Assembly: GCA_024679065.1 (NCBI GenBank)
Contig: JAGIQG010000012.1
Coordinates: forward strand, 64,976,001 to 65,040,000
Direction: 5' to 3'
Length of the DNA stretch: 64,000 nt
Source of the DNA: Sphyrna mokarran
Taxonomy: Eukaryota
A program made the translations under genes and the position numbers. Of the stretch, positions 1-57,060 are shown piece after piece (position 1 is the first letter of the stretch; the number at the start of each line of letters is the position of its first letter). Under the pieces are notes generated by a model, which saw nothing but the letters and a program-made list of their open reading frames with translations, did no database searches and was not told the origin of the DNA.

Positions 1-1159
1 CAGAATCTGGGCTTCTCTGATTTCTGGTAGAAGCTCTTTGTGCTGAGATGGAAACTGAGACTTCAGTCATGAGATTTTGCAGAGGCAGAAGTCCTTTCAC
101 CAACTTCCTTTACAACTCTAACAGCAGACACAGAATGTGAGCAGTTAGCAGTCTACTTCCGGGGGTGTCAGAGGAACTGACACGTCTAGTTAAATTCTAG
201 GCAAAAACTCCCTGATTGAGCTATCAACTGAATCCTTAATCAGGGACATCTTTTGATGGGATCCTTAAACAGGAGCTCAGACTCCAATGGGCCAATCTCA
301 ATGGCTTGATTGAAGTCATTACAGTTCTGTATCATCGTTGGGTTCACAAGTGTGGGAGTGGAGTTAGCCACTACTTACAAACTGGAAAGGATGTGCTCCA
401 AACTTTACACTAGGCCTTGTACAAAGTTGGTGCTGGGTCCTTCTACATTCCATAGGTTTGCTGCCAACCCTCCCAATGTCAAGAGCACTTTGTTGCGCAT
501 AGCCATCAGCCTTTTATGCAAGCCCCCGTCAAAGTGCTCATCTGCGCCAGAATGTACAAGTATCCTACCCTGCCTGGTACTATCCCTCTCCTTGGCCCCA
601 GGTTATTTACGTCTAGTTTCACATCACATGCAGATCAGGCCCTTCATCTGCCCTTCAAAATTAAACACATTTACCAACTGAATTTGTCGATTGATGTTCC
701 AACTTGAATCATTTCTTTTTAAATATATAAAATGATTTCAATGTTTGAAATCCTGTAATGACATGTAGATTTTGGAGAAGTGGTGGGATTGAAGTGGTTT
801 CTATTAAAATATCGCAATTTGCCTGGATTTAAACAAACGCCTCCTGAGTGACAGCCTCTATTAAAGTGAGACAGAAACTATCCATCAGTACCATCACATC
901 GAATACATTTTTCACCATCTATTAATTTCATATTAAATTTATTACTCATGAAAAATGAAAGCTAATTCCCTTGTTAAACATATGGCATTCTGCAGTCAAG
1001 TAATTCCAGCAATAGGACACTGCACTGCCAACTGAGGACCATGGTTCAAATCCCAGCCTTGACTGCCATTCAACCATGCACAGCAGTGATTCTCAAGGGT
1101 TTGCTCAATGTCATCCCGCTTACAATCAAATTTCCCATCGTAGTGAGTCGCTCGGTAAA

Positions 1160-1655
1160 GGGGAAAGGATAGGGGAAGATTAGGAAGAGGGATAGAGGAG
1201 AGTTAGGGGCTCCAGTCCTTATTTGGATGGTGGCACAGTGATTGGCACTGCTGCTTCATTGTGCCAAGGACCCCGGTTCAATTCTGAATGTGAGGGGGAA
1301 GGGGAGAGGGAGGAACAGGGATGGGGAAAGGAGGGGGCTGCGAGTGAAATGGGAAGGATGGAGGGGAGGGGAGGGAGTGGAGGGTGGGATGGGATTGGGA
1401 AGGATAGGGGAGGGGCTGGGGAGAGGGGAGGAAGGGAAGTGAGCCGGAGGGGAGGACAGGGTGGGAGGAGGGAGAGAGTGGGAGGGGAGGACATGGAACG
1501 AGGGGATGAAAGGGAGAAGCGGATGGGGAGGGAGAGACGGAAGGGGAGGGATGGAGAGGAGGGTGGCAGAAGGAGGGGGAGGGGGATGGAGCATGGTGGG
1601 GAGAGGGAGTGTGCCAGGAGGAGGGGAGGGGGTGACCGGGGTTGTGGGAAGGTGA
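1160..1655 (+). repeat. Polypurine (G/A-rich) low-complexity tract
   Basis: Many GGG/GGGG runs separated by A; it produces the Pro/Ser- and Gly/Arg/Glu-rich junk ORFs. Confidence 0.9.
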
Positions 1656-1839
1656 ATGGCACATTTGGGATTTTGTTAACATTATAGAATTTCTGCCACA
1701 CTTCACCCCCATTTGCCTATTCAAACAAGCCTATTGCCCAGATTGCTGGGCAGCTGGCAGCAGGCACACCTCAAATTGGAAGTGGGTATTTCCAATGGGC
1801 AGTAAGATAACCGACCTTATTTTCAGGCCAGTACTGCCC

Positions 1840-2670
1840 CAGTAAAAGGACGTCCCACTTCCTGTGCGAAGAGGAACGTGTGCTTCCACTTTGCTAAGGA
1901 GAAGAGCACCTCCTGGTGCTAAGGGGAAGGTGTGATTCCTCCTGTGAAAGGGGAGGACATGCATTCCCCTCATACTGAGGGGAGAGGGTGCATCCCCTTG
2001 TGTTAAAGTCAGGATGTGCAAATATGAAGATTTGCACCCCCTAGTGCTCATGGGAGGATATGCACCCTCTTGGGCTGAAGGGAGGATGTGCTTCTCCTCT
2101 TCTAATTCAAGCATGTGCACCCTTGTGTTCAGTGGATCATCTCCACCACCTTGTGGTAAGAGGAGGCCGTGCACCCCTGGTGCAAAGGACAGAATGTGCC
2201 TCCTCCTGTCCTATTTGGATGATGTGCAGCCGCTGTGTAAAAGAGAAGTTGTGCTCTCTCTAGGAGAATTGGCACTTCCTTGTGGTAATGAAAAGATGTG
2301 TAGCCCCTTGTACTAAGCGAAAGATCTGCCTTCTCTTCTGCTAATTGGAAGATGTGCCTCGTCCTGTACTAATTAGAGGGCGCCAAGGGGAAGATATGAT
2401 TCCTCCTGTGTAAAAGGAAGAATGTGCAACCCCTTTTGCTAAGAGAATATGTGCAACCCATTTGTGTTAATGTGAGGATGTGCACTCCCAGTGCTCATGG
2501 AAGGATTTACACACCCTTGTGCCAAGAGGAGGATATGCCTCCCGCTGTTCTAATTGGATTTGTGCACCATCTTTTGCTAAGGCAAGGGTGAAACTCCTGT
2601 TATGCTAATCAGATGATGTGTCGCCTCTTCCATGAAGGGGAGGATATGCACTAAGGGATAGTGCACATTA
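1840..2670. repeat. Degenerate ~28-bp minisatellite, left part (approx. CCTCCTGTGCTAAGGGGAGGATGTGCAC)
   Basis: Recurrent gtgctaaggggagga-tgtgcac-cctcct motifs at ~28-bp spacing. Confidence 0.8.
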
Positions 2671-2732
2671 GCAGAATAGGAGACACATCCATCCCTTAAC
2701 ATTAGGTTAAAATCCAACAGGTTTATTTGGAA

Positions 2733-2769
2733 TCATGAGCTTTCGGACCACTGCTCCTTCATCAGATGA
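2733..2769 (-). ncRNA. Minimal type-I hammerhead ribozyme motif in the PLE pseudo-LTR (core intact)
   Basis: Minus strand reads TCAT-CTGATGA-A-GGAGC-AGT-GGTCC-GAAA-GC-TC-ATGA: stem I TCAT/ATGA, CUGAUGA core, stem II with one mismatch, GAAA, vestigial stem III, UC cleavage site. Confidence 0.8.
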
Positions 2770-4047
2770 GTGGAGTGGTAGGATCACAAACACAGCATAT
2801 ATAGACAGAGACTCAATTGCAAGATAATGATTGGAATGTGAGCCATTACAGGTAATCAAGTCTTTACGGTTAGAGACAGTGCGAGTGGAAGAGGGATAAT
2901 GGCAGATTAAAAAGAGGTGTGAATTGTCTCAAGTCAGGACAGTTCGTAGGATTTTGTAATCCCAGGCCAAATGGTTACATGTAGTGTGACATGATCCCAA
3001 GATCCTGGCTGAAGCCGTCCTCATGTGTGCGTGGAACTTAGCTATCAGTTTCTGCTCAATGATTCTGCATGTGGCTATCAGTTCCTGCCTGGCAATTCTC
3101 TATTGTCATGTGTCTTGAAGGCCGCCTTGGAGAACGCTTAACTGAAGATAAAAGGCTGAATGCCTGTGACTGCTGAAGTGTTCCCCAACGGGAACGGACA
3201 CTCCTGCCTGGTGATTGTTGAGCGGTGTCCATTCATCTGTTATCATAGCATCTGCATGGTCCCACAAACAAGCCCTCTGTACGCACAGGATCTGATCAGA
3301 TAAGGGGGAATTCAACAGATACTAACAGATACTGAAAGACGCCATCATAAGAACAGGATATGGCGCTTGACTCATCACTTGACAGTTCTGACATGCCACA
3401 GTGTAAAACCACACTGTCCTCCTCAGAAGATAAACACAGGACAGACAACAGAGTACCCTTTGTCCACCAGTATTTCTCCGGAGAAAAGAAGCTACAATAT
3501 CTTCTTTGGAGCCTTCAATATGTCAGCGATGAAAACAAACATCTCGCCAAGGCCATCCCACACCCCCTACTACTTGCCTTTGAACAGACCATTGTTCACA
3601 GCAAACTGTTCAACCTTCAAGAGAACAGTGGCTATGACACAGCAACCTCTGCAAGACATGCTGGGTCTTCGACACAAATGTCATCATCACACATGAGAAC
3701 ACCATCCACCAAGTATACAGTACACACTCATGCGACTTGGCCAACGTTGTCTACCTCATATGCTACAGGAAAGGATGTCCTGAGGCATGGTACATCAGCA
3801 AGACCATGCAGACGTTACAATAATGGATGAATGGACACTGCTCAACAATCATCAGGAAGGAGTGTCCATTCTCGTTGGGGAACACTTCAGCAATCAAGGG
3901 TATTCAGCTTCCAATATTTGGGTAAATGTTCTCCAGGATAGTCTTCAAAACACACAACAACACAGAATCGCCCAGCAGAAGTTGATAGCCAAGTTCTGCA
4001 CACATGAGGACAGTCTCAACTGGGATCTTAGATTCATGTCACACTAT

Positions 4048-4144
4048 AGATGTAGAGATAGGAACATCGGGGTGGCAGCGCAGGCTCGTTGGGCCGAAGG
4101 GCCTGTTTCCTGTGCTGTTTTGTTCTTTGATCTTTGTTCTTTGT
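4048..4144 (+). mobile_element. CR1 LINE 3' tail nested in the PLE
   Basis: GGGCCGAAGGGCCTGTTTCCTGTGCTG followed by an 8-bp (GTTCTTT-like) tandem tail; PLE sequence resumes afterwards. Confidence 0.75.
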
Positions 4145-4359
4145 TATATGTAATCCCCATCATTGATTGCAAAATCCTACTAACTGTCCTAGCTTGAGAT
4201 AATTCACACCTCTTTAACCTGCGATTAACCCTCTCTCCATTCATATTGTCTGTATTTGTAAAGATTTGATTACATCTAAAAACTCACGTTCCAACTATTA
4301 TCTTGCAATTGAGTCTCTGCCTATCTATATATGCCCTGTTTGTGAACCCACCTCTCCAC

Positions 4360-4396
4360 TCACCTGATAGAGGAGCTACGCTCCAAAAGCTCGTGA
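4360..4396 (+). ncRNA. Degenerate hammerhead ribozyme motif in the PLE pseudo-LTR
   Basis: TCAC-CTGATAGA-GGAGC-TAC-GCTCC-AAAA-GC-TC-GTGA: stems are perfect but the core is mutated (CUGAUAG; AAAA instead of GAAA). Confidence 0.7.
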
Positions 4397-4549
4397 TTCC
4401 AAATAAACCTGTTGGACTTTAACCTGGCATTGTGAAACTTCTTACTGTGCCTATCACAGTCCAATGCTGGCACCTCCACATCATGACCATTCATCCCTTG
4501 GAACAGGAAAGTGCAGATCCTCCACTCAGCAGAGGAGGGTCCCAGATCA

Positions 4550-4740
4550 TGGGGGATGCTGGGACATTGGGTAAGTTTAAGAAATAAGTGGACATAGTTA
4601 AGTAGTGAGGTTTGAAGGGCTATGGTAAACAGGCAGGAAAGTGGAGTTGAGGCTAAGATGAGATCAGCAACAATCGTGTTAAATGACAGAGCAGCCTCAG
4701 GAGGCTAGATTGCCTTCCCCTGCTCCTAGTTCACTTGTGA
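4550..4740 (+). mobile_element. CR1-type LINE 3' fragment
   Basis: AAGGGCTATGG...GCAGGAAAGTGGAGTTGAGG...GATCAGC...CCTGCTCCTAGTTC pattern of shark CR1 3' UTRs. Confidence 0.7.
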
Positions 4741-4759
4741 TGTGGAGATGCTGGCATAA

Positions 4760-5500
4760 TTCACCTGTGTTAAGGGGACGATATGCACTCTTTTTTGCTG
4801 AGGTGGATATGCTCCTTCCTGTGCTGAAGGGGAAGTGTACCAGTCTATTCCAAGGCAAAGATGTGCCTTCTCCTCTGCTGTGCATCTTGCGGTGCTAAAG
4901 AGAGAATGTGTATCCTTTTATACTAAGAGGAGGATGAGCACCTTGTTATGATAAGAGGACAATGTTCCTTCTTTGGTGTTAAGTGGTGGATATGCACCAT
5001 CTTGTACCAATGGAAGGATATGCACCTTCCTCTCCTCAGTGGAGGATCCGCACCCTCCTGTTCCAAGAGATGGATGTACCTACTCCTTTGTTAAGGGGAG
5101 GATGGGCACTCTCCTGTGTAAGGAGATAATGTGTGAAAGCTTCCTGTGCTAATGGCAGAATGTGATCCCTTCTCTCCTGAGGGTAAAATGTGCACTGCCT
5201 GATGCTAAGGAAAGGAAGCACACCCTCCTGTGCTCCGTGGAGGATTCACAGCCTCCTGCTGTAAGGGATGGATGTGTCTCCTCCCCTGCTAAGGAGAGGA
5301 TGTGTCTCCTAAGTAGAGGATGTATACCAACCCTGTTCCAAGGAAAAGATGTGCACCCTCCTCTGCTAAGGGGACAAAGTGCACAATCTTGCACTAAGGT
5401 GGGAAAATGCACCTTCCTGTACTAAGAGGATGGGATGTGAAGCCTGCTGTGCTAAGGGGAGCATCTGCATTCTCCTGTGTTGATGGTAGGGATGCATGCA
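4760..5500. repeat. Same ~28-bp minisatellite, right part
   Basis: Same unit and orientation as 1840-2670, resuming after the Penelope and CR1 insertions. Confidence 0.8.
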
Positions 5501-6044
5501 GCTGGGTGCTGCACATCTCCAAATTGTATGAAGTCAGAAAATTATGAATGAAATCTTTTTTTCGTCTTGAAATGAGTTGAAAGATTGAGGGAGAGAGAAT
5601 AGTTGCTTTCATTATGAAGGTTGTCCAGTTGATTATCCTCTTGAAGTGTTGTGTCCTGCAGAGTGAGGACCGGGGAGAAGGAAAATGAGTTTAGGCTGAA
5701 TAGCTCTTCATAGACTATCTCAGACACCAGAAGCCTGGTGGCTTACTTCTCTCTCAGAATTTTTCCATTAGACTTTTTCCATTTTTAGGGCAACCTGTTT
5801 CCCTGAATGCTTCTAATGTCTATTTCTACCTTCAATTTTCCTGTGTTAATTGACCCTATTTTAGGATCTGAGCAAAATCTTCAAAATCAACTTAAATATG
5901 TATCACTATTTTCAAAATTTAATCATTTAGTCATTCCTTTCCAGGGTAAAAAGTGACCATTGTGAAGTGTTTCTAATCTTGCTTTCAGATATTTTATGAA
6001 TGAAGTACATTTTTGCAAAACAAAATACAACCATTAAATAAAAT

Positions 6045-6120
6045 ATCAAGGAACAAGAACAAAGAACAAAACAGCACGGGAAACAGGCCCTTCGGCCCAA
6101 CAAGCCTGTGCCACCACTAT
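6045..6120 (-). mobile_element. CR1 3' tail fragment
   Basis: GAACAAAGAACAAAACAGCACGGGAAACAGGCCCTTCGGCCCAAC is the reverse complement of the tail at 4090-4144. Confidence 0.75.
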
Positions 6121-6194
6121 GATGTTGTTCTGCAGTGAATTTTCTGCTCAGAGCCTTAACTCCATTGATGGAGGTTACTAAAGGTTGATACATT

Positions 6195-6483
6195 TGAAAG
6201 GTTTACATTAACACCACAACTAAGTTGCTGTGAAAATCCCTTAGTTACCACATTCTGGAACCTGTTCAGATACACTGAGGGAGAATTTAGAATGGTCAAT
6301 ACATCTAACCAACATGTCTTTCAGATTGTGGGAGGAAACCAGAACATCCTCCCCGGAAGAAACGCAAGCTGATACAAGGAGGACATGCAGATTCTACACA
6401 GACAGTAACCCAAGTCAGAAATTGAATCTGAGTCCTTGGTACTGTGAGGCAGCAGTGCTCACCACTGTGTTACCATGCCACCC
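6195..6483 (-). mobile_element. tRNA-derived SINE (HE1-like/V-SINE)
   Basis: Reverse complement of the head GGCATGGTAACACAGTGGTGAGCACTGCTGCCTCACAG and the core GGTTTCCTCCCACA; similar to other copies in the window. Confidence 0.85.
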
Positions 6484-6867
6484 AAAATTGAGACTTCAAT
6501 ATTAATGTTTTTAAGACACACATTTAAAGGGATGGATCCCAGTAAGCCTCCAGATGATTTTATATCTCAGATCTTGTGTGCACATTTGGGGACTGGGCTG
6601 TTGTACTCACTTGAAGCGTAATGAAAATTGCAAACCATAAATCAATGTGGAACTGCATTAATTATTTAAAACTATTGCAATGACCATGATTGATATCTTC
6701 GCCCCACCACATTCATTCTAAAACCCTGAGTGTTTTATGCCAGGAATTTTCTTTCCCAATCCAATGAGCTGCTGAAATGTCTTTCGTGTTTTCGGTGTGA
6801 GACTATCGTACTTAGAAATGTGTTAAAATTATTTGTGAATTCTTTGCCAAACAACTCAGCATTTAGA

Positions 6868-7167
6868 GGTAGCACGGTGGCACAGTGTCTGCTGCCTCAC
6901 AGTGCCAGGGTCCTGATTTCGATTCCAGGCTTGAAGTACTGTGTGGGCAGAGTCTACACATTCTCCCCATGTCTCTGTGGGTTTCCTCTGGGCACTCTAG
7001 TTTCCTCCCACATTCCGAAAAATGTGCTGGTTTGGTGCTAAATTGGCCGTACTAAATTTTCTCTCAGTGTACTCGAATAGGCGCTGGAGTGTGGCAATTA
7101 GGGGATTTTCACAATGCCTTCAATGCCGTGTTAATGTATGCCTACATATGATGCTAATAAATAAACT
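6868..7167 (+). mobile_element. tRNA-derived SINE (HE1-like/V-SINE)
   Basis: GCACGGTGGCACAGTG head, TTCGATTCC B-box, GTGGGTTTCCTC...TTTCCTCCCACA core, AATAAATAAACT tail. Lies head-to-head with the 6195-6483 copy. Confidence 0.85.
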
Positions 7168-7217
7168 CTAATTACTTTGGCACAAAATTTCTTCTTGCAC
7201 TGAAGACAATTGCTGTT

Positions 7218-7236
7218 TGGCCATTAGGTGGCAGCG
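7218..7236 (+). promoter_or_regulatory. CTCF-like motif
   Basis: TGGCCATTAGGTGGCAGCG; 13/14 match to CCASYAGRKGGCRS, with the typical TGG lead-in. Confidence 0.7.
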
Positions 7237-10138
7237 CAGTACCGTTTGAGCTAGGGATTCAGGGGCTGCAACTTCTGAATGTTTTTTCCCCTTGTTAAAG
7301 ACACGCAAAGTTATATGATGCCATGTTTACATCGGCGCCAAAGCAAAGACGGAACAGAAATTACCTCGCAACACCCGCTGGCTCTCATGAAAGCTTTATA
7401 ATGCACAGTGTTCTCAATTGGGGATTTGCATCTCAACCCACTATATCTGATCATCTGTATGTGATGGTGTCTGAGCATTTGTGTGTCTGTGGGGGCGGGG
7501 GAGGGTGCTGCAAGATTGCACATCGGAATAGTGCATGCAATTCGCCAATTGTAAACACTCCCTCTCACCTACAAAAAAATCCAATGGGTTTCTTCAGGGA
7601 TTGTCTCCCCCCGCCATCCTGGGATAAACTTTCCCCCCTACAAACCAGATCAAATTAGAAGTGATAAACTTTCTAAAAAAGGTGGTGGAAATCAGTGAGG
7701 GGCCGGCAGGCTAGTTTTCAGGATCAGGATTAAGCGCTGGGCAGCTGTTTACATTGAGTGACAAACACTGGGATTTAGGGAATGCGGTTTGGTTTTTCAC
7801 TTCTCGAGGCCATTTCACTCCTGGAAACTCCAAGAGTGAAATTGGTCAGCGATGGGCGCCTTTCTCCTGGAAGTCTTAGACTGGCAGTGGTTACATTCCA
7901 AATGGGGAGGGGGGCGGGAGAGGGGAGAGGGGCGAGGGGTGGGGGCTATAATATTTATCCCCCACTGCTTTGACAGCGATTGTAACAACACTCGCACAAC
8001 ACGAAAGAGGTTAGCACCTCCGGCCGAACCTCCTCACTCCATTGTCTGAAACGTATGCAGTCTGAATATGGATGTGCATTTCCCGGTGTGAAGCCTCAGC
8101 TTAGGGGGTCGACTGATGTTCCTCGGCGGGATCTGGGCCGAATTCTTTGAGATCCCGGCTCTACATTCAATCATGAGGCGGGAGTTTGACTTTCTCAAAA
8201 AAATGTATGTTCACCAAATCATCATTGAAACCCTCTTTCTCTTAAATCGCAATTATCTTCGCTTCCCCCTGTGTTTTGTGGTGGAGTGTCCTGTAAAATG
8301 ACCTTTCTGTACACCCAGGTCTATATATTAATTAATGTATATGGGTTTCTGCAGAGTATCGCCAGCGCATGCAGAAATTATTCTTTAGAGAGCTGGAGTG
8401 GGGTTTTTTTTAGCTCGAAACAGAGCAAGTTTAGCTGAGACTGGGGTTCACAGAATCTGATAAATACAAATATTCCCGTACAAAAGTGAACATTTAATTC
8501 TCGCTCGCCCATGCCCGGGATATGAGATTGGGCAAAGCACAAACTCCTCTTCCCTCCCCTCCACCAAAAATCTCCCCGCAAAACACCTATTTTAATAACA
8601 TGGATTTATTTTGGAATGTCCACCGTACGCTATTTACCAGGAATATGGGACGTGGAAGCAAACACTTCGATCGTGGCTGGGACGACATTCTGTAATTCTT
8701 TCTCGCTTGAAAGGTGTCCTTGGATCGAGATCTGTGTCTCTTTTATATCCTTTTGCTGGCTTCAGTCAGAAGAAAAAAATTGACAGTAAATGCACAGGCC
8801 GTTAGATGTAACTGCGTGTAAATCTTATCACAGCCAGAGAAGGGATATCGTCACAGATCAATAGATTTAGACTAATGTATTCATTGCGACTCAAACTATC
8901 TCTAAATTGATTGATGGATCTGGAGTAGAAGGGGTAATTATATTCACGGTGGTTTCGTTGGCAGTTAACTTTTACTGGTTAATTGGGACCGTCTTTTCAG
9001 TTGGAGAAGTACATTTCGGAAATCAGTCGGCCTCAAATCTTTTCCTGGTGAAAATAGCGGGCAGATGGGAAAAACCCAGGATATTTCTTCTGGAGAATTC
9101 CTCTCCGTGCACATTGATAATGAACACTTGGCTTTTTCCAAATGACCATCGGGGTTATGGCCATATTGGAATTCACACAGTGTGAGTGACATTTACACCT
9201 CTCTACATAAGGACACTTTGTGATATATATATATATACATAAGAACACAATGAGCATATAAATATAAAACATATAAATAAGAACGCAGCGATATATATAC
9301 ATATATATAATGTATATATCACTGAACTTCAGCCCTGTCCCTAACGCGCTCATGCTTTCGGTGATAGGGAGTCGGCTCCTCGAATGGATTAGAGTTTGGG
9401 TTTGGTTCAGGCATTTCTGATTTGCGTGTACTAGGAATACGTGTGCAATTCCTGCTTTTCTATTTCAGTTCTGCGATGCAGGATACATTGAAGTGTTCAG
9501 TCATGGCACACACACACACACACCCGGCTATGTTGAAACTGTATCTAAACCACTTGCAGAATATAATTTCTTTCCCATCCTATCTACAGAAATGAAATCT
9601 GAAACTAGGGTAAGAGAGAGATATAACGCAACTACTGAGAGTTCACCCGGCAGAGAGAGAATATATATCCTGGTTTAGAATAAAGAACTCCCTAGATAGC
9701 AATAAAATTGTTGTTGCTTTAGGAGCCACGCAAATCGTCAGGTTAAATAATGATTTGATACCGAGGTGGACATTCTGAGATTAAATGTTGAAATTTCTCT
9801 TTTACTATATGTGTGTCGTGTTCTCGCTATTTTCTGGCAGATCTGACCGCGCAACTTTTCAAACACATATCAATTTCAGTGTGGGGTCATTTCTGAAGGA
9901 ATATTAATTTTATCTCCAGAGTATTTCAGCGGTCGACACGAACGTGTCCACAAAAATCAGTTGACACATTTCCGTACAGACAGAAGCACATAAAAGTACA
10001 GACTGCTTCAGAGTTTGGCAAAAAAAATCTTCCCTTTAATGTGGACATCAACGTGCCGGCATTTTGGTGTTTACCTGGAAGCTGGATATGTTTGCGTTTG
10101 CCTTTTAGTGCCAGGTGAGTTCTGTGTGAAGAGATGTC

Positions 10139-10300
10139 CTGATGTAGAGATGCCGGCGTTGGACTGGGGTAAACACAGTAAGAAGTCTGACAACACCAGC
10201 TTTAAGTCAGGTGAAGACGCAGAGGAGTACCTCGAAAGCTTGTGATTTTACTATCAAATAAATCAGTTGGATTTAAACCTGGTGTTGTCAGACTTCTTAC
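10139..10300. mobile_element. Short fold-back derivative of a Penelope pseudo-LTR
   Basis: Perfect 22-bp inverted repeat, GTAAGAAGTCTGACAACACCAG (10178-10199) / CTGGTGTTGTCAGACTTCTTAC (10279-10300). Similar to the PLE end at 4400-4485. Encloses a hammerhead-like GAGG-AGTA-CCTC-GAAA-GC-TT-GTGA. Confidence 0.8.
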
Positions 10301-10387
10301 AGAGATTGTCCTGCCAGGGGTAGGTAAGGATTGAGGACTGATCCACTGCCCCGCCCCACTCCCCTTCCCCTCTTCTTACTGACTGCG

Positions 10388-22139: not shown

Positions 22140-23095
22140 TAAGAAAGAAGTGGTGTTGGGGAAATTGATGGGATTGAATAAACCCCCAGGATCTAGTGAT
22201 ATATATTGCAGAATATTTAAGGAAGTGGCCCTAGAAATAGTGGGTGCATTGATGGTCATCTTTCAAGATTCGATAGACTCTGGAACAGTTTCTACAGATT
22301 GGACGGTAGCTAATGTAACCTCACTATTGAAAAAGGGAGGTGGAGAGAAAACAAGGAATTTTAGATCAGTTAGCCTGACATTAATAGTGGGGAAAATGCA
22401 AGAGTCCATTATCAAAAATTTTATAGCAGAGATCTTGGAAAACAGTCATAGAATCAGACAGTCAGCATGGATTTGCAAAAGGGAAATCACATTTGACAAA
22501 TTTACTGGAGTTCTTTGAAGATGCAGCTAGTAGAGTTGATAAGGAAGAGCCAGTTAATGTGGTTTATTTGAACTTTCAGAAGGCTTTCAACAAAGTTCCA
22601 CATAAGAGATTTTTAGCGTGTAAAAATTAAAACATATGAGATTGGGGGTAGTGAATTGAGATGGATAGAAAGTTAGCTGGCAGACAGGAAACAGTAGGAA
22701 TAAACAGGTCTTTTTCTAAGTGGCAGGTAGTGACTGGTGGGGCACCATATGGATCAATGCTAAGGCCTTAACTATTCACAATATATATTAATGATTTAGA
22801 TGAGGGAACTAAATATAATGTCTCCAAATTTGCAGATGACTCAAAGCTGGGTGGGAGGGGGAGCTGTAAGGAGAATGCAAAGATGCTTCAGTGTGATTTG
22901 GACAAACTAAGTGAGTGGGCAAATGAATGGCAGGTGCAATATAAGGTGGGCAAATGTGAGGTAATCCACTTTGGTAGCAAAAACAGGAAGGCAAGTTATT
23001 ATCTCAATGGCTACAAATTGAGAGACAGGAGCGTGCAATAAGACCAGGGTGTCCTCGTACACCGATCAAAGAAGGTAAGTATGCAGATGCAGCAG
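22140..23095 (+). mobile_element. CR1 LINE ORF2 reverse-transcriptase fragment (pseudogenised)
   Basis: IFKEVALEIVGALMVIFQDSIDSGTVSTDWTVANVTSLLKKGG...NFRSVSLTLIVGKMQESII; later [16 protein letters not shown] and SKFADDSKLG (FADD motif); frameshifts present. Confidence 0.93.
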
Positions 23096-26000
23096 ACTCA
23101 CAAACACACACTCACATTGAACTCATACACAGTCTAATACACACTGAACTCACATTCACACAGACTTAGATTGAACTCACAATCATACACTTACAAACTG
23201 AGCTCATACACACACAGACTTACACTGAACTCACACTCGCACAGAATTAAACTGAGCTCATATTCACAGACTTACCCAGAGCTCACAATCACACAGACAT
23301 ATGCTGAGCTCACATTTGCACAAACTTACTCTGAGCTCACAGTCACACACACAGTGAGTTCATACAGCCTTACGCTGAGCTCATACTTGCACAGACTTAC
23401 ATTGAGCTCAAACTTGCACAGACTTACACTGAGCTCAAACTTGCACAGACTTGTACTGAGCTCACACTTGCACAGACTTGTACTGAGCTCACACTTGCAC
23501 AGTCTTACTCTGAGCTCACATTTGTACCAACTTACACTGAGCTCACACTCAGAGACATACACTGAGCTCACACTCACACTACACTGAGCTCACACTCACA
23601 CAGATTACACTGAGAACACACTTGCACCAACTTACATTGAACTCATACACTCATATAGATTTACACTGAGCTCACACTCGCACATACATATTCTGAGCTC
23701 ACACTCACACAGACTTACACTGAACTCACACACACACAGCCTTACACTGAGCTCACACTTGCACAGACTTACACTAAGCTCACACTCACACAGACTTACA
23801 CTGAGCTCACACTCAAGAGAGTTACACTGAGATACATTCACATAGACATACACTGAGCTCACATTTGCAGAAGTACACTGAGCTCACACTCACACAGACT
23901 TACTCTGAGTTCATACTCACAAAGAGTTACACTCAGCTCACACTCACACAGATGTATACTGAGATCACAGTCACACAGAGTTACACTGAGTGAACACTCA
24001 CACCGACTTACGCTGAGCTTACATTCACAAGACTTGCACTCAGCTCAGACTCCCACAGATTTTCATTGAGCTCACACTTGCAGAGACCTACACTGAGCTC
24101 ATCCTTGCATAGATTTAAACTGAGCTCACACTCACAGAGGCCTACACTGAGGTCACACTTGCACAGACTTACTCTGAGCTCATACTCGCAGACTTACACG
24201 GAGATCACCCTTGCACAGATAAACACTGAACTCACACTCACACAGACTTACACTGAGGTCACACTCACACAGACTTACACTGAGGTCACACTCACACAAA
24301 CTTACACTGTGCTCACATTTACGCAGACTTACATTGAGCTCACACTCACACTGACTTACATTGAGCTCATATACAAAGACTTACTCTGATCTCACACTCA
24401 TACAGAATTAAATCAAGCTCACACTGGCAGATTTACATTGAGCTCACACTCACACAGACTTATGCTGACCTCACACTGACGCAAATGTATACTGATTTGA
24501 ACTCACACTCGGTTTTACTCTGAGCCCATGTTCATACAGACTTACACTGAGTTCACAGTCATGAAGAGATACACTGAGCTCATACATGCACAAATGTATA
24601 CGAAGCTCACACTCACACCGGCATACACTGAGCTCACATTCACAAGACTCACACTCAGCTCAGACTCGTACAGACTTACAATGAGCTCACGCTTGCACAG
24701 ACTTATACTGAGTTCATGCTCACACAACCAGGTACACAGACCTCACACTCTCACAAATGTACACTGAGCTCACACTCGCACAAATGCACATTCACACATG
24801 CACACACTGAATTTACACTCCCACAGACTTTTATTGAGCTCACACTTGCACGGACTTACACTGATCTCACACTCACACAGACATGCACTGAGCTCACACT
24901 CACACAAACATACACAGAGCTCACAGTTGCACAGTCCTACAATGAGCTTACACTCACAGAGACTTACACTAAACTCACAAACACACAGCCTTACACTGAG
25001 CTCACACTCACACAAATTAATACTGAATGCACACTTACACAAGTTCACACTTGCACAGACTTACACTGACAAACACACACTCATACAGATTTACATTGAA
25101 TTCACACTCACACAGATTTACACTGAGCTTAGACTTCCGCAGACTTACACTAAGCTCACAGTCATGCAGACATACACTATGCTCACACTCAAACAGATGT
25201 ACACTGAGCTCACACTCACACAGATGTGCACTGAGCTCACACTCACACTGACTTATATCGAGCTTACACTCCTGGACTTGCATTCAGCTCACACTCACAC
25301 AGATTTATACTCGTACTGAGCTCATACTCGCACAGACTTGCACTGAGCTGACACTCACATAGATGTGCATTGAGCTCACACTTGCACAAGCTTACATTGA
25401 GCTTATGCTCACAGCAACTTACATTGAGCTCACACTCACACAGACTTACATTGAGTTCACACTTGCACAGATTTAGACTGAGCTTACTCGCACAGGAGTT
25501 GCACTCAGCTCAGACTCGCACAGATTTATACTGAGCTCAAACTCAGTCAGATGTGCGCTGATCTCAGTGTAGCTCATATTCATACAGACTTAGACTAAGC
25601 TCACACTTGCACTGACTTACACTGAGCTTACACTTACAGGACTTGCACTCAGCTCACATACACAGATTTATACTGAGCTCACACTAACAAGACTTACACT
25701 GAGCTTACCTGCACAAGACTTGCACTCAGCTCACACTCACACAGATTTATACTGAGCTCACACTCACACAGACTTACACTAAGTTCACATTCACTCAGGT
25801 GTGCGCTGAGCTCACAGTTGCACAAACTTATGCTGAGCTTATGCTTGCAAAGCCTTATATTGAGCTCATACTTGCACACACTTATATTGAGCTCACACTC
25901 ACACAGAGTTATACTGAGCTCACACTCACACAAATGTACACTGAGCTCTCACTTGCACAGACATATGCACAGACCTACAATGAGCTCCCACTTGTACAGA

Positions 26001-29000
26001 CATACATTGAACTCATGTTCGCACAGACTTGCACTGAGTTCACACTCATATTGACTTACACTAAGCCCAACCTAGCACAGACTTACACTGAGCTCACACT
26101 CACATAGCCTTACACTAGGCTCATACTCACAAAGACATTCACTGAGCTCACACTCGCACAGATTACACTGAGAACACACTTGCACCGACTGACACTGAGC
26201 TCCCACGTAAAATTACGCTAAGCTCAAATTCACGCAAACTTTCACTGAACTCACACTCACGCAGACATACACTGACTCTCATTACCACAACTTGCATTAA
26301 TCTCACATTAACACTGACTTACACTAAGCTCAGTCACACAGTCATACACGGAGCTCATTCAAACATACATTGAGCTCACATTCACATAGACTTACACTGA
26401 ACTCACACTCAAACACTGACACTGAACTCACACTCACACAGACTTACATTGAGCTCACATTCACACAGATGTACGCTGCCCTCACACTCACACAGATTTG
26501 CACTGAGAGCACACTCACACAGGCTTACTCTGAGCTCACACTCACACGAGCTACAGTGAGATCATACTCTCACAGACTTATGGTGAGCTCACACTCGTGC
26601 AGACTTATGGTGAGCTCACACTCGCACAGACTTATGGTGAGCTCACACTCGCACAGACTTACAGTGAGCTCACACACACACACAGATGTACACTGACCTC
26701 ACACTCACACCACTGTACATTGAGATTACACCCACACAGACTTACATAGAGCTCACACTTGCACAGGTGTACATTGAGCTCACTCTCGCACAGACTTCCA
26801 AAGCTCACACTTGCACTGACTGAGCTTACACTAATTAAACTTGCACTCAGCTCACACTCACATTGATTTATACTAAGCTCATGCTCACACAGACTTATAA
26901 TGAGCCCACACTCACACAGATATGCACTGAGCTCATACTCACACAGATGTACACTGAGCTCATGCTTACACAAACATGCATTGAGCTCACACTCACACAG
27001 ACTTACACTGAGTTCACACTTGCACAGACTTATTCTGATCTCACATTCGCAAAGACTTATACTCAGCTCACACACACAGATTTACAAAATTTTCTTTCAC
27101 AGACATTCAATGAGCTTATACTCGCACAGACTTACACTGAGCTCACACTCGCACAGACTTACACTGAGCTCACACTCACATCAACTGACACTAAGCTCAA
27201 CCTAGCACAGACTGACACTGAGCTCACACTCACCCAGACTTACACTGGCTCATATTCATAAAGACATTCACTGAGCTCACAGTTACACAGATTACACTGA
27301 GAACACACTCACACTGACTTACACTGAGAACACACTCACATGAATTACACTGTGCTCAAACTCACTCAGACTTTGACTGAACTCACACTGGTGCAGAACT
27401 ACACTGACCTCACACACATACGCACTTACACTCAGCTCACACTCACACATACATACACTGAACTCACACTCCCACAGACTTACATTGAACTCACACTCAT
27501 ACAGCCTTACTCCAAGCTTACACTTGCACAGACTTACATTAAGCTCACATTCACACAGACATACACTGAGCTCACACCCACAAAGAGTTACACTGAGATC
27601 ATAATTGCACAAACTTACACTGAGATCACACTCACACAGACTTACACTGGGCTCACAGTTGCACAGACTTACGCTAAGAACACACTCACACAGATTTGCA
27701 CAGAGCGCACACTCACACAAACCTACTCTGAACTCACACCCACATAGTTACACTGAGCTCACACCCATACATAGTTACACTGAGCTCACACCCGTACATA
27801 GTTACACTGAGTTCATACTCACACAGACTTATACTGAGCTCACACTCACAAAGACGTACACTGACTTCACGCTCACACTGCTTACACTGAGCTCACACTT
27901 GCACAGACTTACACTGAGCTCACACTCTCACACACTTACTCTGAGCTCACACTCACACAGACTTACACTAAGCTCACACTTGCACAGATATACACTGAAC
28001 TCACGCTCCCACAGACATGCACTGAACTCACACTTCTACAGACTTACATTGAGCTCACACTCACACAGACTTACATTAAGCTCACACGCACACAGACATA
28101 TACTGAGCTCACATTCAAATAGACTTAAGCTCTGCTCACACTCACACAGAGTTACACTGAGCTCACACTCAAACAGGCTTACACTGAGCTCACAATCACA
28201 CAGACGTATGCTGACCTCATGCACACAGATTTACATTGAGTTCAGACTCACACAGACCTATTCTGAGCTCACATTCACACAGACTTAGACTGATGTCACA
28301 CTCTAATAGACTTACACTGAGCTCACAGTCACACAGAATTAAACTCAGCTCACACTCACACAAATGTACACTGAGCTCACACTCCACAGACCTATACTGA
28401 GTTCACACTCTTGCATGCATATAGTGAGCTCACACTTACACACTTACTCTGAAGTCACACTAACACAGACATACGCTGAGCTCTCACACTTGCACAACCT
28501 TACTCTGAGCTCACACTCACACACTTACACTGAACTCACACTTGCACAGACTTACACTGAGTTCACACTCGCAGATTACCACTCTGAGCTCACACTCGCA
28601 CAGACTTACACTGAACTCACACTTGCACAGACTTACACTGAGCTCACACTTGCACATTACCACTCTGAGCTCACACTCACAAAGACTTATACTGAGCATG
28701 CATTCAAACAGACTGATACTGAGCTCACATCAAGTCTTTCACTGAACTCACTTTCACACACACTTTCACTAAGTTCACACTCACACAGGCTTACCCTGAG
28801 CTCGCACTCACACAGACTTACACTATGTTCACATTCAAACAAGCATATACTGAGCTCACAGTCAGACTTACATTGACATCACACTCACACAGCCTTACAC
28901 TGAGCTCACAATTGCACAGACTTACACTAAGCACACACTCACACTGGCTTACTCTGAGCTCACACACACACAGAGTTATACTGAGATCATACTTGCATAG

Positions 29001-30910
29001 ACTTACACTGAGTTCACACTCACAGAGAGTTACACTAAGTTCGCACAGACTTACACTGAGCTCACATGCATACAGACTCATGCTGACCTCACACTCACAT
29101 AGACGTACACTGAGCTCACACTCACACAGACTTACTGTGAGCTCACACTCACACAGACTTACACTGAGCTCACACTCACACAGACTTACACTGAGCTCAC
29201 ACTCACACAGACTTACACTGAGCTCACACTCACACAGACTAACTCTGAAGTCACACTCTAGACTTGCATTCAGCTCAGACTCGCACAGATTTTCAATGAG
29301 CTCACATTCACAGAACTCACACTTGAACAAACTTACAATGAGCTCACGTTTGCCCAGACCTGCACTGAGCTCACACTCAGAGACTTATATTGAGTGCTCA
29401 TTCACACAGACTTACACTGAACCCACACTCACGTAGACTTACTCAGATCTTACACTCACACAGACTTACACAGAACTCACACTCACACAGACATACACTG
29501 AGCTCACAATCATAAATGTATGCTGCCCTCACACTCACACAGATTTGCACTGAGTGCACAAACGCATACATACTCTGAGTTCACACTCACACAGTCTTAG
29601 TCTGAGCTCACATTTACACAGACTTACACTGAGCTCCCATATTATATTATGAGCTTATATTGAGCTCACACTCACACAGACATACACAGCTCACACTCAC
29701 ACTGGCTGAGGCTTACACTCATGAGGCATGCACTCAGCTCACACTCACACAGACTTACACTGAGCTCACACTCACACAGACTTACACTGAGCTCACATTC
29801 ACACATTCATACATTGAGCTCACACTACACAGATTTACACTGAGCTCACACTTGCACAGACTTACACTGAACTCCCATTCACACAGACTTATATTGAGCT
29901 CACACTCACACATACTTACATAGAGTTCACACTCACACAGACTTACACAGCTCACACTCACACTGACTGAGGCTTACATTCATAAGACGTGCATTCAGCT
30001 CAGAATCACACAGACTTATACTGAGCTCATACTCACACAGACATACATTGAGATAATGCACAGATTTACACTAAGTTCACACTCACACAGCCCTGCAATG
30101 AGCTTGCACTCATACAGAGTTAAACAGAACTCAGTCACACTTACATTGAATTCAAACTGTCACAGACTTTCACCGAGCTCATACTCACACAGATGTACAC
30201 TGAGTTTACACTCACACACACTTACACTGAGCTCATGCTCGCGCAGACATACACTAAGCTCACACTTGTGCAGACTTAGTCTGAGCTCACACTTGCAAAC
30301 ATTTACACTGATCTCGCACTTGCACAGCCTTAAATTGAGCTCACACTTACACAGACTTACACTGAGCTCACACTCACACAGTCTTACATAGAACTCAATC
30401 TCGCAGACTTATACTAAGCTCATACACAGAGATCACTCTCCCACAGACTTGCCCTCACACTCACACAGACTTACACTAAGTTCACACTCGCACAAATGTA
30501 CACTTAGCTCACACTCTCATAGACTTACTGTGAGCTCACACTCACACAGACTTACACTGAGCTCACACTCACACCAACTTACATTGAACTTACACTCACA
30601 AGAATTACATCTCAGAACTCACATGCCCGAAAACCAACTGAGGTCACGCTGATGCAGACTAACTCTGAGCTTACACTCACACAGACTAATTCTGAAGTCA
30701 CACTCATAAAGAGTTGCACTGAGCTGACACTCGCATAAACATATACTGAGCTCACTCTCACACCAACTTACATTGAACTTACACTCACAAGAATTACATT
30801 CATCTCAGACTCATTTAGACTTATACAGAGCTCACACTTGCACAGATTTACTCTAAGGTCACACTAACACAGACTTACACTGGGCTTACAGTCACACAGA
30901 CTTATACTGA
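23095..30910. repeat. 27-bp minisatellite (consensus CTGAGCTCACACTCACACAGACTTACA), roughly 290 copies
   Basis: Direct reading of tandem units, with a near-perfect run at ~29110-29240. It translates as 9-aa repeats TELTLTQTY / HRLTLSSHS / CECELSVSL. Copy number is span divided by 27. Confidence 0.97.
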
Positions 30911-32525
30911 ACTCATACTCACTCACACTAAACTTACACACTCACACTGAGCTCACTCACACTCACTTGCTATGTACTCATTGACAATCACTCATACTGA
31001 GCTCACTCACACTCACTCACACTGACCTCACTACGCTCTCTCACACTGAATTCGCTCACATTTATCACACTGGACTCACACACTCACATTGAGCTCACTC
31101 ACACTGAGCTCACTCACACTGAGCTCACTCACACTCACAGCTCACAAACACTCATTCACACTGAGCTCACTCACACTCACTCACACTGAGCTCACACACT
31201 CACTCACACTGAGCACACTCACATTCATTCACAATGAGTTCACACACATTCACACTGACCTCACTCACGCTCACTCACACTGACCTCACTCACACCCATT
31301 CATACTGAACTCATTCACACTCACACTGACCTCACTCACACCCATTCATACTGAACTCATTCACACTCACACTGACCTCACTCACAGTCTCTCATACTCA
31401 ACTCACTCACACTCTCTCACACTGACCTCCCTCATACTCTTGCACACTAAGCTCACACACTCATTCACAATGAGTTCACATACATTCACACTGAACTTAC
31501 TCACACTGAGCTCACTCACTCTCACTCACAGAGTTCACTCACAGTCACTCCCACTGAGCTCACTCACACTCACTCATATTGAACTCATTCACACTCCCAC
31601 TGAGCTCACTCACACTCCCACTAAACTCACTCACACTCACTCACACTGAGGCCATGTCATTGAGCATCTTTAAGACAGAGAAAGATAGATTCTTGATTAA
31701 TAAGTGGATCAGGGGTTATGGGGAAAAGGAAGGAGAATGAGGATGAGAAAAATACCAGCCATGATTGAATGGCAGAGCGGACTCAATCAGCCAAGCAGCC
31801 TAATTCTGCTCCTATGGGTCTTTGGTCTTATGGTCTTTTCTTCTTTATGAATGGGAAAAGAATAGCATAGCACGCAAGAAACAATACTTTTCACTGCATA
31901 CTAATATATGTGACAATAATAAATTCAATCAAATCAAATAACACTCATTCTTAGCTCATTCACCGGCACACTCAGATTGAGTTTACACACTGACTCACAG
32001 TAGCTCACTCACACTCATTGTTGCACTGAGCCCACAATTCATACCCACAGTACTCATTCACTCAATAAGCTCACACACTCACACTTTTCACCCTCTCACC
32101 TGAAGTTACACTGAGCTCACTTTCACTCACAATCACTGAACTCATATTCACTCACTCTGTGTTCACTCCTACTCACTCTCACTTGGCTCCCTCACACTCA
32201 CATTGAACTCATTCACACTTACCTCACAGAGTGTTCCCTCTCGTACAAAAGTTATACTAAGCTCACTCATATTTACAGTTGCATGAGCCCACACAGTGCA
32301 CTCACTCCCAACCACTTACTTAGCTCCCTCATGCTCACAATAATCTCACTCACACTGAGTCCCCTCACACTCAGCTCACTCCCACTCAGCCCCCTCACAC
32401 TGAACTCACTCACATTCACAGTAAACGCCCTCACACTCACACTGAGCTTCCTCACATTCACACTGAGCCCTCTCACACTCACACTGAGCCCCCTCACACT
32501 CACACTGAGCCCTTTCACACTCAAT
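30910..32525. repeat. Variant continuation of the array with shorter units (15, 21 and ~25 bp) around the same CACACTGAGCTCAC core
   Basis: CACACTGAGCTCACT repeats at ~31085-31135 and CACACTGAGCCCCCTCACACT repeats at ~32430-32520; interrupted by LINE tails. Confidence 0.9.
31650..31940 (+). mobile_element. Two LINE 3' tails (CR1-type, then a (AATCA)n-tailed type) inserted in the satellite
   Basis: GATAGATTCTTGATTAATAAG...GGGGTTATGGGGAAAAGG...CCTAATTCTGCTCCTATG-GGTCTT repeats; then TACTTTTCACTGCATAC...TGTGACAATAATAAATTCAATCAAATCAAAT (same tail at ~22100-22125). Confidence 0.8.
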
Positions 32526-33090
32526 TTCACAGTTTATTTTTAAAATTATTTATTAGTCTGAAGTAGACTTACATTCACAATGCAGTTATTGCATTAGCTG
32601 TCAGAATTACATTTACACTGGGATGACTCCCATACATTCCCATTCCCATTCAGATTATTCATTCCCATTCACAATGATCACATCTTCTTTCACACACCCT
32701 TAATCTGATACCATTCACCCAAATTCTCCTGCACTGATTTATTTTGTTGTAGACTCATACTCAACTGAGCTGGATAATATCAATTTTGACTACAATCATT
32801 TACTCTGAATTACACTTCAATTTGCATTCAGTTACTACAATACTGGATTTATGTTACACATCAATACTTTGAGCTAACCAAGGCATATTCTGCCGATATG
32901 CACTCACTGCTACAATAACACAAATGCAATTATTCTTCTCTTATCTTTGCTGATTACCTTGACCAATACACACCGATGGTCACAAGTACACCGTGTTAAT
33001 TCACACAATGTTATCACTGCATGGATGTGTCACATGCTTTCACTGTTAAAACCAAGTTTGTTGACACATGCTTAACATTAGTACAACACC

Positions 33091-54200: not shown

Positions 54201-54759
54201 GTTGCATTCTTTCCAGCTGCTAGAGTGCGCTTCCCTTCCCCCACCCACAATACCCCCCGTCACCATCTCTCCCCAGTGGGTTAGCAGTGAAGGCAAATAT
54301 GAATTCGATGACATTATTTGGAAATCCCAGATTCGCCCACAAATTATCCACTTTGCTATTTAATAAGCCATGTAACCCAATCGGGCCTTCCAGACATGAA
54401 AAACATAACGCACTTGTGTTAGTATGTGTGCGTTAATAAGGATTGTCCATTCTTTTGCATCACCGACCTCATTACTCAATACTGCAATCCGTTCACTTAC
54501 AGGCATGTGAGCAAGTGTGAGTTTGGGAATAGTTAATGTGTGTCCAACCGACGGTTTGTGAGGGGCCTGTGTGTGTCATTGAGTAAATGAGTGGGTTGTG
54601 AACCTATGCGTAAGTGGGAATCTGTGCGTACGACCAGTTGCAATGGGAAGCACGTGGTGCCCAGAGACCCATTTTGGCTTTTGGTATTGCATTTTGATCC
54701 ACCGCTGGCCTTACTGCTGTTCTATACGTTGTTCTATACCTTACTGTTGTTCTGTACGT

Positions 54760-57060
54760 AATTTGGTCCTGTATTTAATATTTTGGCATTGCACTTTACA
54801 TTTTGGTATTGCATTTGATAGTTTGCTGTTGTGGTTGACGTTTTGGTATTTGGTATTTTGGTCTTATATTGGGAATTTTGATATTATACTCGGTATTTTG
54901 GTATTGTATTGGGTATTTTGATATTGTATTTGATATCTGGAGATTATATTTGATATTTTGGAATTGTATTTGAAATCTTGGGACTGAATTCGGCATTTTA
55001 GTATTGTACTTATTATTTTGGTATTGCATTTGATACTTGGATATTATGTTTGATATATTGGTGCTTTGGTATTATATTTGGCATTTTGGTATTGTATTTG
55101 ATATTTTGGAGTTGTATTTGGTATTTTGGCATCTTGGTATTGCATGTGTTATTTTGGCATTGGGTTTGGTACTTTGATATTTTGATATTGTATTTGGGAT
55201 TAAATTTCATATTTTGGTATGGTATTTTAGTATTCTATTTTAATATTTTGGCATTGGTATTGTGTTGGACCTTTTGGCATCTTGGCATTGATATTGTGTT
55301 GGACATTTTAATATTTCTGCATTGTCCTTTGTATTTTGGCATTTAACATTGTATATAATATTTTGACATTGTGTTTGGCATTTTGGTATTATATCTGGTA
55401 GTTTGGTATGTTATTTTGTATTTGGCACATTGATAATTTATTTGGTATTCTGGTATTGTATTTGGTATTTTGCTGGTGTATTTGGTATTTTGACATTGTG
55501 TTTGGTGTGTGATTTTCTAGCGTTGTGTTTGGCATTTTGGTATTGTATTTGCTATTTTGGTAGATTGTATTATAGCTGGTATTTTGGTGTTTGGAATTAT
55601 ATTTGGCATTTTGGTTTTGTATTTGGTATTTTAGTATTTTACTGGTATGTTGGCATTATCTTTGAAATTTGGATCTATATTTCGTTTTTGCTCTAATATT
55701 TAGTACTTTGGTACTGTATTTGATACTTTGGCATTATATTCAGTATTTTGGTTTTGGTTTTGTACTTGATATTTTGACATTGTATTTGGTACTTTGTTAT
55801 ATATTTTTGGCATTTGGTATCATTTTGGAATTTTGATATTGTGTTTGGTTTTGTTTTGGGCATTTTGGTACTGTATTTGGTATTTTATTTGGCACTTTGA
55901 CATTGCGGTATTTTGGTATTGCATTTTTTAAATTGTATTTGGATTTTTGGCTTTGCATTTGGTATTTTGTTATTATATTTCTCATTAAAGTTTGTAATTA
56001 GTATGTTAGCATCATAATAGGTATTTTGGCAATGAATTGGTGTTTTGGTATTGCACTTGCATTTAGGTGTTGCATTTATTAGTTTGGAATTTTGGTATGA
56101 TACTTGGCACTATAACATTGCATTTTGTATTTTGTTATTCCATTTGGTATTTTGGTACTTTTTATTTCCATGTTTACTTAGTATTTGATATTACATTTGG
56201 CATTTATGTAATGTATTTGGTATTTTGGCACTCTGGTAATATGTTTGATATTTTTAAATTGTACTTGGTTTTTTCAAATTGTATTTGGTATTTTCATATT
56301 TTATCTAGGATTGCATTTGGTATTTTAGTAATGTTAATATTTTGATATTGTACTTGTATTGCATTTGTTATTACATTTCGTATTACATTTGGTATTTTGG
56401 TATTATATTTGGTATTTTGGTATTGCATTTGGCATTTTTGCATTTAGTATTTTGTTGTATTTTGGTATTTGGGTGTTGCATTTGGGTATTTTGTATTATA
56501 TTTTGTATTTTGGTATTGTATTTTGCATTTTGGTATTTGGTATATTTGGTACTTTTTTGGGGTATATTAGTATTGTGTTTAGTACATTGGTATTTGCTAA
56601 TTTGGCATTGTATTTGTTATTTTCTATTGTATTTGCTATTCTGTTATTTTGTTACTAAGTTATTGTATTTGATGTTTTGACATTTTGGTACTGTACTTGT
56701 TGTTTTGATATCCGGTATTTTTATAGTGTATTTGTTTTGGGAGTATTTTGGCCCTGTGGTATTTTGGTATTATGTTTGTTATTTTGGCATTGGATTTGGT
56801 AAAGTATTTCGTATTTTACTATTTTGTATTGTAGTTGACATTTTGGCATTTTGGTCATGTACTTTGTGCTGTATTTGGCATTTTGATGTTGTGTTGATAT
56901 TTTGGCATCGTTTCTGGCATTCTGGGAATGGATTTGGTGGTTTGATATTTTAGTCTTATTTTGACACTGAAATTTTGGTATTATGTTTGGGTTTTTTGCA
57001 TTGGGCATTTTATTATTATAGTTAGTATTTTGGTTTTGTATTTGGTGTTTTGTTTTGCCC
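54760..57060. repeat. Degenerate ~20-bp T/G-rich minisatellite (approx. GGTATTTTGGTATTGTATTT)
   Basis: Recurrent TTTTGGTATTG(T/C)ATTTGG over ~2.3 kb; it gives the W/Y/F/C/I-rich junk ORFs. Confidence 0.92.

Follow-up and report, generated by a model that had tools for sequence, protein, structure and literature searches.

Minimal hammerhead ribozymes (min-HHRs) were described by Cervera and De la Pena in 2014 as a class carried in the pLTRs of metazoan Penelope-like elements, with roughly 4,000 copies in the coelacanth and 9,000 in Xenopus (PMC4209133). As monomers these motifs gave no detectable cleavage, and as dimers or trimers their activity was low (PMC4209133). The role of the Penelope hammerheads is called unclear by Craig et al. 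2021, who place endonuclease-bearing (EN+) Penelope-like elements with a CX2-5CxxC linker in the Neptune or Nematis clades (PMC8557442). Type I hammerheads related to those of Penelope end repeats, like the one studied here, are also reported from non-LTR retrozymes, which one cartilaginous fish has; among Xenopus dimer elements in the same preprint, 1 of 9 cleaved in vitro (bioRxiv 10.64898/2026.07.22.740005).

The 64,000-nt stretch of Sphyrna mokarran DNA analyzed here (the window) carries a motif of the class already published in 2014 (PMC4209133). It lies in one arm of an inverted insertion, far downstream of a homeobox gene, and the features used below are as follows.

2733..2769, minus strand: minimal type-I hammerhead motif, with an intact core, U-A in stem I where the family has C-G, and a G-G mismatch in stem II
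4360..4396, plus strand: sister hammerhead motif, with perfect stems and a broken core (G8, A9 and G12 changed)
2698..3261, minus strand: left arm, an inverted, 5′-truncated copy of the element 3′ end, comprising the C-terminal part of the endonuclease and the end repeat
3262..4485, plus strand: right arm, a longer 5′-truncated copy comprising the end of the reverse transcriptase (RT) region, a Cys linker, a presumed GIY-YIG-type endonuclease and the end repeat
4048..4165, plus strand: unrelated repeat, labelled SINE-like, that interrupts the right arm and has an inverted relative at 6043-6126
2686..2697, plus strand: left target-site duplication of 12 bp, 11 of whose 12 letters match the right copy
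4488..4499, plus strand: right target-site duplication of 12 bp, flanking the insertion at 2698-4485
42284..44968, minus strand: SIX-family homeobox gene, given for context; its exon 2 extends to 42284, and the motif follows 39.5 kb downstream

Read off the window sequence on the minus strand, the 37-mer at 2733-2769 is UCAU-CUGAUGA-A-GGAGCAGUGGUCC-GAAA-GC-UC-AUGA. In hammerhead numbering it runs C3-U4-G5-A6-U7-G8-A9, an extra A and G10.1...C11.1, followed by G12-A13-A14-A15.1, G15.2-C16.2, U16.1, C17 and a 4-bp stem I, with cleavage predicted between 2737 (C17) and 2736. The motif thus has the CUGANGA / GAAA / UH core, together with both the unpaired nucleotide between A9 and G10.1 and the G10.1-C11.1 pair. 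Helix III is absent, the AGCU palindrome (15.1-16.1) is present, and helix I (UCAU/AUGA) is within the 4-5 bp expected. A hammerhead descriptor matched the window once, at this position, and gave 0 matches in 200 dinucleotide-block shuffles, which rules out a chance match. By contrast, Rfam hammerhead families gave no match at E<=10 in 1-10000 or 2650-2850, so that the prediction of an earlier note on this DNA, that standard annotation would miss the motif, holds for Rfam. The same note had described the motif as catalytically intact-looking, with all core nucleotides retained. The minus-strand letters confirm the core; stem II is not intact, as a C>G change at 11.4 creates a G-G mismatch and leaves 3+1 pairs around it. 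This mismatch was found in 0 of 30 flank-anchored family copies.

The shared anatomy with the published min-HHRs is extensive. Both have a type I core, a 4-bp helix I, the extra nucleotide between A9 and G10.1, the G10.1-C11.1 pair, a palindrome in place of helix III, an end-repeat location and a predominance of single truncated copies, and opposite-strand motif pairs such as that at 2733-2769/4360-4396 are likewise described in PMC4209133. The spacing of the pair differs (1.6 kb here, compared with about 100-700 bp in PMC4209133), as does helix II, which has 5 bp in the shark family and 7-8 bp in Schistosoma (PMC4209133), with only the 3+1 pairs left at 2733-2769. In the sections of PMC4209133 consulted, sharks are not named, although its supplements may list shark motifs. 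Literature searches found neither a description of a shark Penelope hammerhead family nor a study of the kinetics of stem II mismatches.

The two arms are inverted, so that the element 3′ end occurs twice, head-to-head, between the 12-bp target duplications. Homology to 89 other loci placed the element bounds at about 2698 and 4484 and the arm junction at 3261/3262. The motif lies on the sense strand of the element, 3′ of the endonuclease stop and within the end repeat, and its attribution in the earlier note to a Penelope-like element as a minimal type-I hammerhead is therefore upheld. The left arm, whose endonuclease piece contains stops and frameshifts, ends 35 nt past the motif; the right arm, similarly broken by stops and frameshifts in its coding part, carries a tail that extends about 50 nt further. 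Within the family this layout is usual, as 28 of 38 neighboring motif pairs (90 loci) share the orientation. Because the 12-bp duplication flanks the whole unit, it points to both arms having likely arisen in a single insertion event. An inverted 5′-truncated copy adjoining a main copy, with a one-sided tail, is also a feature of the elements in PMC8557442, in which the extension is 30-40 bp rather than about 50 nt. The earlier note was also correct that the sister copy combines perfect stems (UCAC/GUGA in stem I and a perfect 5-bp stem II) with a broken core (G8>A, A9>G and G12>A); this copy, however, sits on the plus strand, in the other arm of the inverted repeat. A dimer of 2733-2769 with its sister was rejected, as the two are on opposite strands. 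We also rejected a non-LTR retrozyme on its layout, since the arms here are inverted and contain ORF remnants: retrozymes consist of tandem units in head-to-tail order that lack an ORF (bioRxiv 10.64898/2026.07.22.740005), whereas the insertion at 2698-4485 is head-to-head with endonuclease remnants.

Several features identify the host element. Its pieces in the window match L111, a relative elsewhere in the genome, by tblastn at 35-65% identity, and the L111 DNA is 74% identical to the right arm. A 460-aa frame of L111 scores as RVT_1 (E 1.8e-9), so an RT upstream in the same element is seen through this relative. The Cys linker reads C-x4-CxxC in L111, and its CxxC part is found in the window. 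A VY..YIG-type motif with Cys/His residues in the window translations is, we presume, that of a GIY-YIG-type endonuclease. The four broken element pieces of the window gave no significant Pfam match, including none to GIY-YIG, and when a degenerate frame of another locus (L079) was searched against PDB sequences, only spurious hemocyanin matches resulted. Judged by these sequence features, the host of the motif is an EN+ Penelope-like element. It shares with the EN+ elements of PMC8557442 the order of RT, Cys linker and C-terminal endonuclease, here presumably of GIY-YIG type, and by the definition given there its CX4CxxC linker points to Neptune or Nematis as candidate clades; unlike those elements, it is present in the window as broken 3′ parts only. 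Decay has gone less far in L111 itself (L111:2131-5771), a Penelope-like copy whose two RT frames, of 460 aa and 413 aa, are in an inverted arrangement.

We compared both arms with the family majority. The left arm differs at 21 of 250 non-CpG sites and the right arm at 26, with 3 changes in common, which puts the divergence from the family majority at 8-10% per arm; a direct comparison of the two arms shows 46 differences in 263 sites. Of 4456 candidate places in the genome, 40 were scored, and the closest of these share 86-91% identity with the left arm. The insertion at 2698-4485 is an old one whose coding parts are defunct.

The motif is one of hundreds of family copies in the genome. A pattern anchored on the flanks only, and thus not selected for the core, had 313 genome matches, of which 30 were retrieved. 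All core letters were present in 13 of these 30 copies, and the core together with G10.1-C11.1 in 6; in a hand count of the 100 matches listed of the 313, the corresponding numbers were 36 and 20. The CUGANGA/GAAA geometry is present in the family majority. Intact cores are thus common in the family, and with its stem II mismatch the reported copy is not the unusually intact one that it had seemed to be. The expected chance of keeping the core at the divergence of the left arm is 0.16, and with some 16-20% of copies keeping their cores, the intact core at 2733-2769 would be a matter of luck. G12, the general base of the hammerhead (PMC6155905), is changed in 10 of 30 copies, a rate shared with position 1.1 of stem I (10 of 30) and like that of the remaining CpG sites. 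In the same 30 copies the divergence at non-CpG sites of the core is 6.0%, compared with 7.3% at non-core sites. From these rates, the genomic copies appear to be under no clear selection on the core, with G12 decaying at the neutral CpG rate, a picture that applies to the family and not to selection at the locus itself.

Among 30 loci chosen solely for an intact motif (L031-L060, which include the duplicate pair L042/L043), 22 had no family sequence (a local score of 21 or less) beyond about 7 nt upstream of stem I, and copy starts, mapped by homology to other loci, pile up at 4356-4358. Most copies thus seem to start where the uncut motif starts, a point that may correspond to the 5′ end of the template RNA. 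The motif copies L042 and L043 lie 2 kb from each other on opposite strands and have identical upstream 30 nt, which suggests a local inverted duplication.

The earlier note had read stem I, UCAU/AUGA here and UCAC/GUGA in the sister, as a paired change that preserves base pairing. For a genome-wide test we used a pattern in which 2.1, 1.1 and one loop site could each take either of two letters and the rest was of family type. The resulting 238 copies were thereby selected for an intact core, a perfect stem II and family-like sequence, and the reported copy is excluded by its stem II change. At 2.1/1.1 these copies carry C/G in 141 cases, C/A in 65, T/G in 22 and T/A in 10: T at 2.1 occurs in 32 of 238 copies, with A at 1.1 alongside in 10, and A at 1.1 occurs in 75 of 238. 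The T/A combination is as frequent as expected from the single changes (10 observed, 10.08 expected; odds ratio 0.99, Fisher p=1.0). The G>A change at 1.1 is a CpG change that usually breaks the pair. Among the 238 copies there is therefore no compensatory covariation at 2.1/1.1; on these counts each of the two stem I changes is a frequent transition that arises independently of the other, and the supposed paired change is a coincidence that lends no support to maintained function. Related subfamilies, at L111:1908(-), L124:8275(-) and 9085(+), and L121:5373(+), have the same core and AGCU with other stem I and II sequences, which suggests real covariation between subfamilies, unlike within the family.

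Folding predictions rank the motif well below a family-type copy (L041). The stem II hairpin is predicted at -1.7 kcal/mol, compared with -5.8 for L041, the monomer fold at -4.1 compared with -10.0, and the double-hammerhead dimer at -7.3 compared with -19.7 kcal/mol for the family type. With 15-130 nt of flank, the predicted probability of the hammerhead pairs is 0.00 for 2733-2769, as upstream sequence captures the 3′ strand of stem II. The model is also harsh on good family copies: stem II exceeds 0.5 in 23 of 30 with 15-nt flanks and in 12 of 30 at 130 nt of upstream flank, where both stems do so in 2 of 30, and the family-type double hammerhead is likewise not the predicted energy minimum of the dimer. 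These energies therefore rank copies and cannot prove inactivity. Since the catalytic letters, the G10.1-C11.1 pair, the bulged A, the palindrome and the three core-adjacent stem II pairs are present, some cleavage in a stripped, forced construct would be plausible.

Together, these findings describe a motif with the anatomy of a Penelope min-HHR that fails the tests applied here for an active or selected one. It is the minimal hammerhead of an abundant Penelope-like retrotransposon, left in an old head-to-head insertion, and very probably an inactive, neutrally decaying relic. While the element was alive, the motif likely dimerized via its AGCU palindrome and so processed element RNA, in line with the proposal of PMC4209133. 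A single insertion event likely produced the two arms, which have drifted since, the left arm keeping its core by luck but losing a stem II pair. RNA crossing the site is predicted to form no ribozyme fold, with the 3′ strand of stem II or the whole motif paired elsewhere.

Two other readings leave host function aside. One would make the U-A variant of stem I a distinct active subfamily and the source of the left arm, which we regard as hardly credible. Although T/A with an otherwise perfect motif occurs in 10 genomic copies, and related subfamilies with other stems exist (L111 and L124), its frequency is the product of the single changes, so that the idea of stem I covariation as a subfamily trait fails across the 238 copies, and the pair-breaking C/A is 6.5 times as common (65 compared with 10). 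In addition, the right arm, which belongs to the same insertion, carries C/G, and the closest relatives of the left arm noted above are of mixed states. The other reading is residual activity without function, in which a stray minus-strand transcript with its start within the element (after 3262) would now and then pair with another family transcript through the AGCU palindrome and be cut in trans. The intact core, the hundreds of family copies as possible partners and the low in vitro activity of dimeric min-HHRs (PMC4209133) speak for it. However, with 15-nt flanks a local misfold is predicted to be 6.3 kcal/mol more stable than the hammerhead (-11.2 compared with -4.9), a heterodimer with a family-type copy would place a C-A mismatch beside one cut site and reach only -10.6, compared with -15.6 for two separate monomers, and the left arm is 5′-truncated. 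We consider such cleavage unlikely.

A role in host gene expression depends on the surroundings. The gene at 42284..44968 has Pfam SIX1_SD and homeodomain matches, and is presumably SIX3. A convergent SIX-family gene, presumably of SIX1/2 type, lies about 120 kb away on the other side of the motif. For a motif on the strand of SIX3 and between two convergent SIX genes, one reading is exaptation to cleave or terminate SIX3 read-through transcripts running towards the neighboring gene. Domesticated hammerheads do exist, in amniote introns and the rodent Clec2 3′ UTR (PMC6155905). Like 2733-2769, those of the RECK intron and Clec2 are on the sense strand near a host gene; they are located within transcription units and show cross-species conservation (PMC6155905), whereas this motif is intergenic and in a decaying repeat. 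The cleavage of SIX3-sense transcripts envisaged in the earlier note is also disfavored by distance and by predicted structure, as the SIX3 stop is 39.5 kb from the motif and is followed within 7 kb by 12 poly(A)-like hexamers, and in a modeled minus-strand RNA (4600->2600), such as SIX3 read-through would produce, 32 of the 37 motif bases are paired to antisense sequence of the sister arm, mostly at a probability of about 1. With no covariation and a mismatched stem II, and with its nearest same-strand partner core-broken, exaptation is extremely improbable. That partner lies 31 kb downstream: in a search of the window and 50 kb beyond the window start, the stretch between it and the motif, like the window itself, yielded no other same-strand family copy, and the nearest one with an intact core is at 44 kb. 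Were the motif still to cut minus-strand RNA between SIX3 and the convergent gene in trans with family hammerhead RNA, as a working terminator, a transposon ribozyme would be terminating transcription in a developmental gene cluster; we hold this to be very improbable. Reads from one low-share run of uncertain kind (2400-4700) comprised short family-level pieces only, with none on 2400-2630, and are uninformative for the locus.

The relic reading makes 2733-2769 ordinary transposon debris, and the locus itself is of little importance. In a large repeat family decaying at CpG sites, chance is expected to yield both a core that looks intact and a single seemingly compensatory pair, so that neither is evidence of activity. 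Cleavage in vivo, if it occurred, would make this a rare exapted Penelope ribozyme beside a developmental gene. For the question of what these hammerheads do, the family-type motif is a better substrate than 2733-2769: the core, stem II and the three inner stem I pairs are complete in at least 173 of the 238 copies (141+10+22).

Further features were seen around the locus. The genome holds six SIX-family genes, comprising the convergent pair around the window (G000:C224:64858482), three clustered on C557 (G000:C557:23481365-23665085) and one on C949. Minisatellite arrays lie on both sides of SIX3, at about 23000-32700 (27-bp, then 21-25-bp units) and at 54750-56600 (20-bp units). The insertion sits in a degenerate 28-bp tandem array (about 1850-2700 and 4490-5500), with an inverted segment around the site. 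Finally, a very short head-to-head stub of a related element occupies 10119-10307, with its tail on the minus strand and a degenerate hammerhead end on the plus strand.
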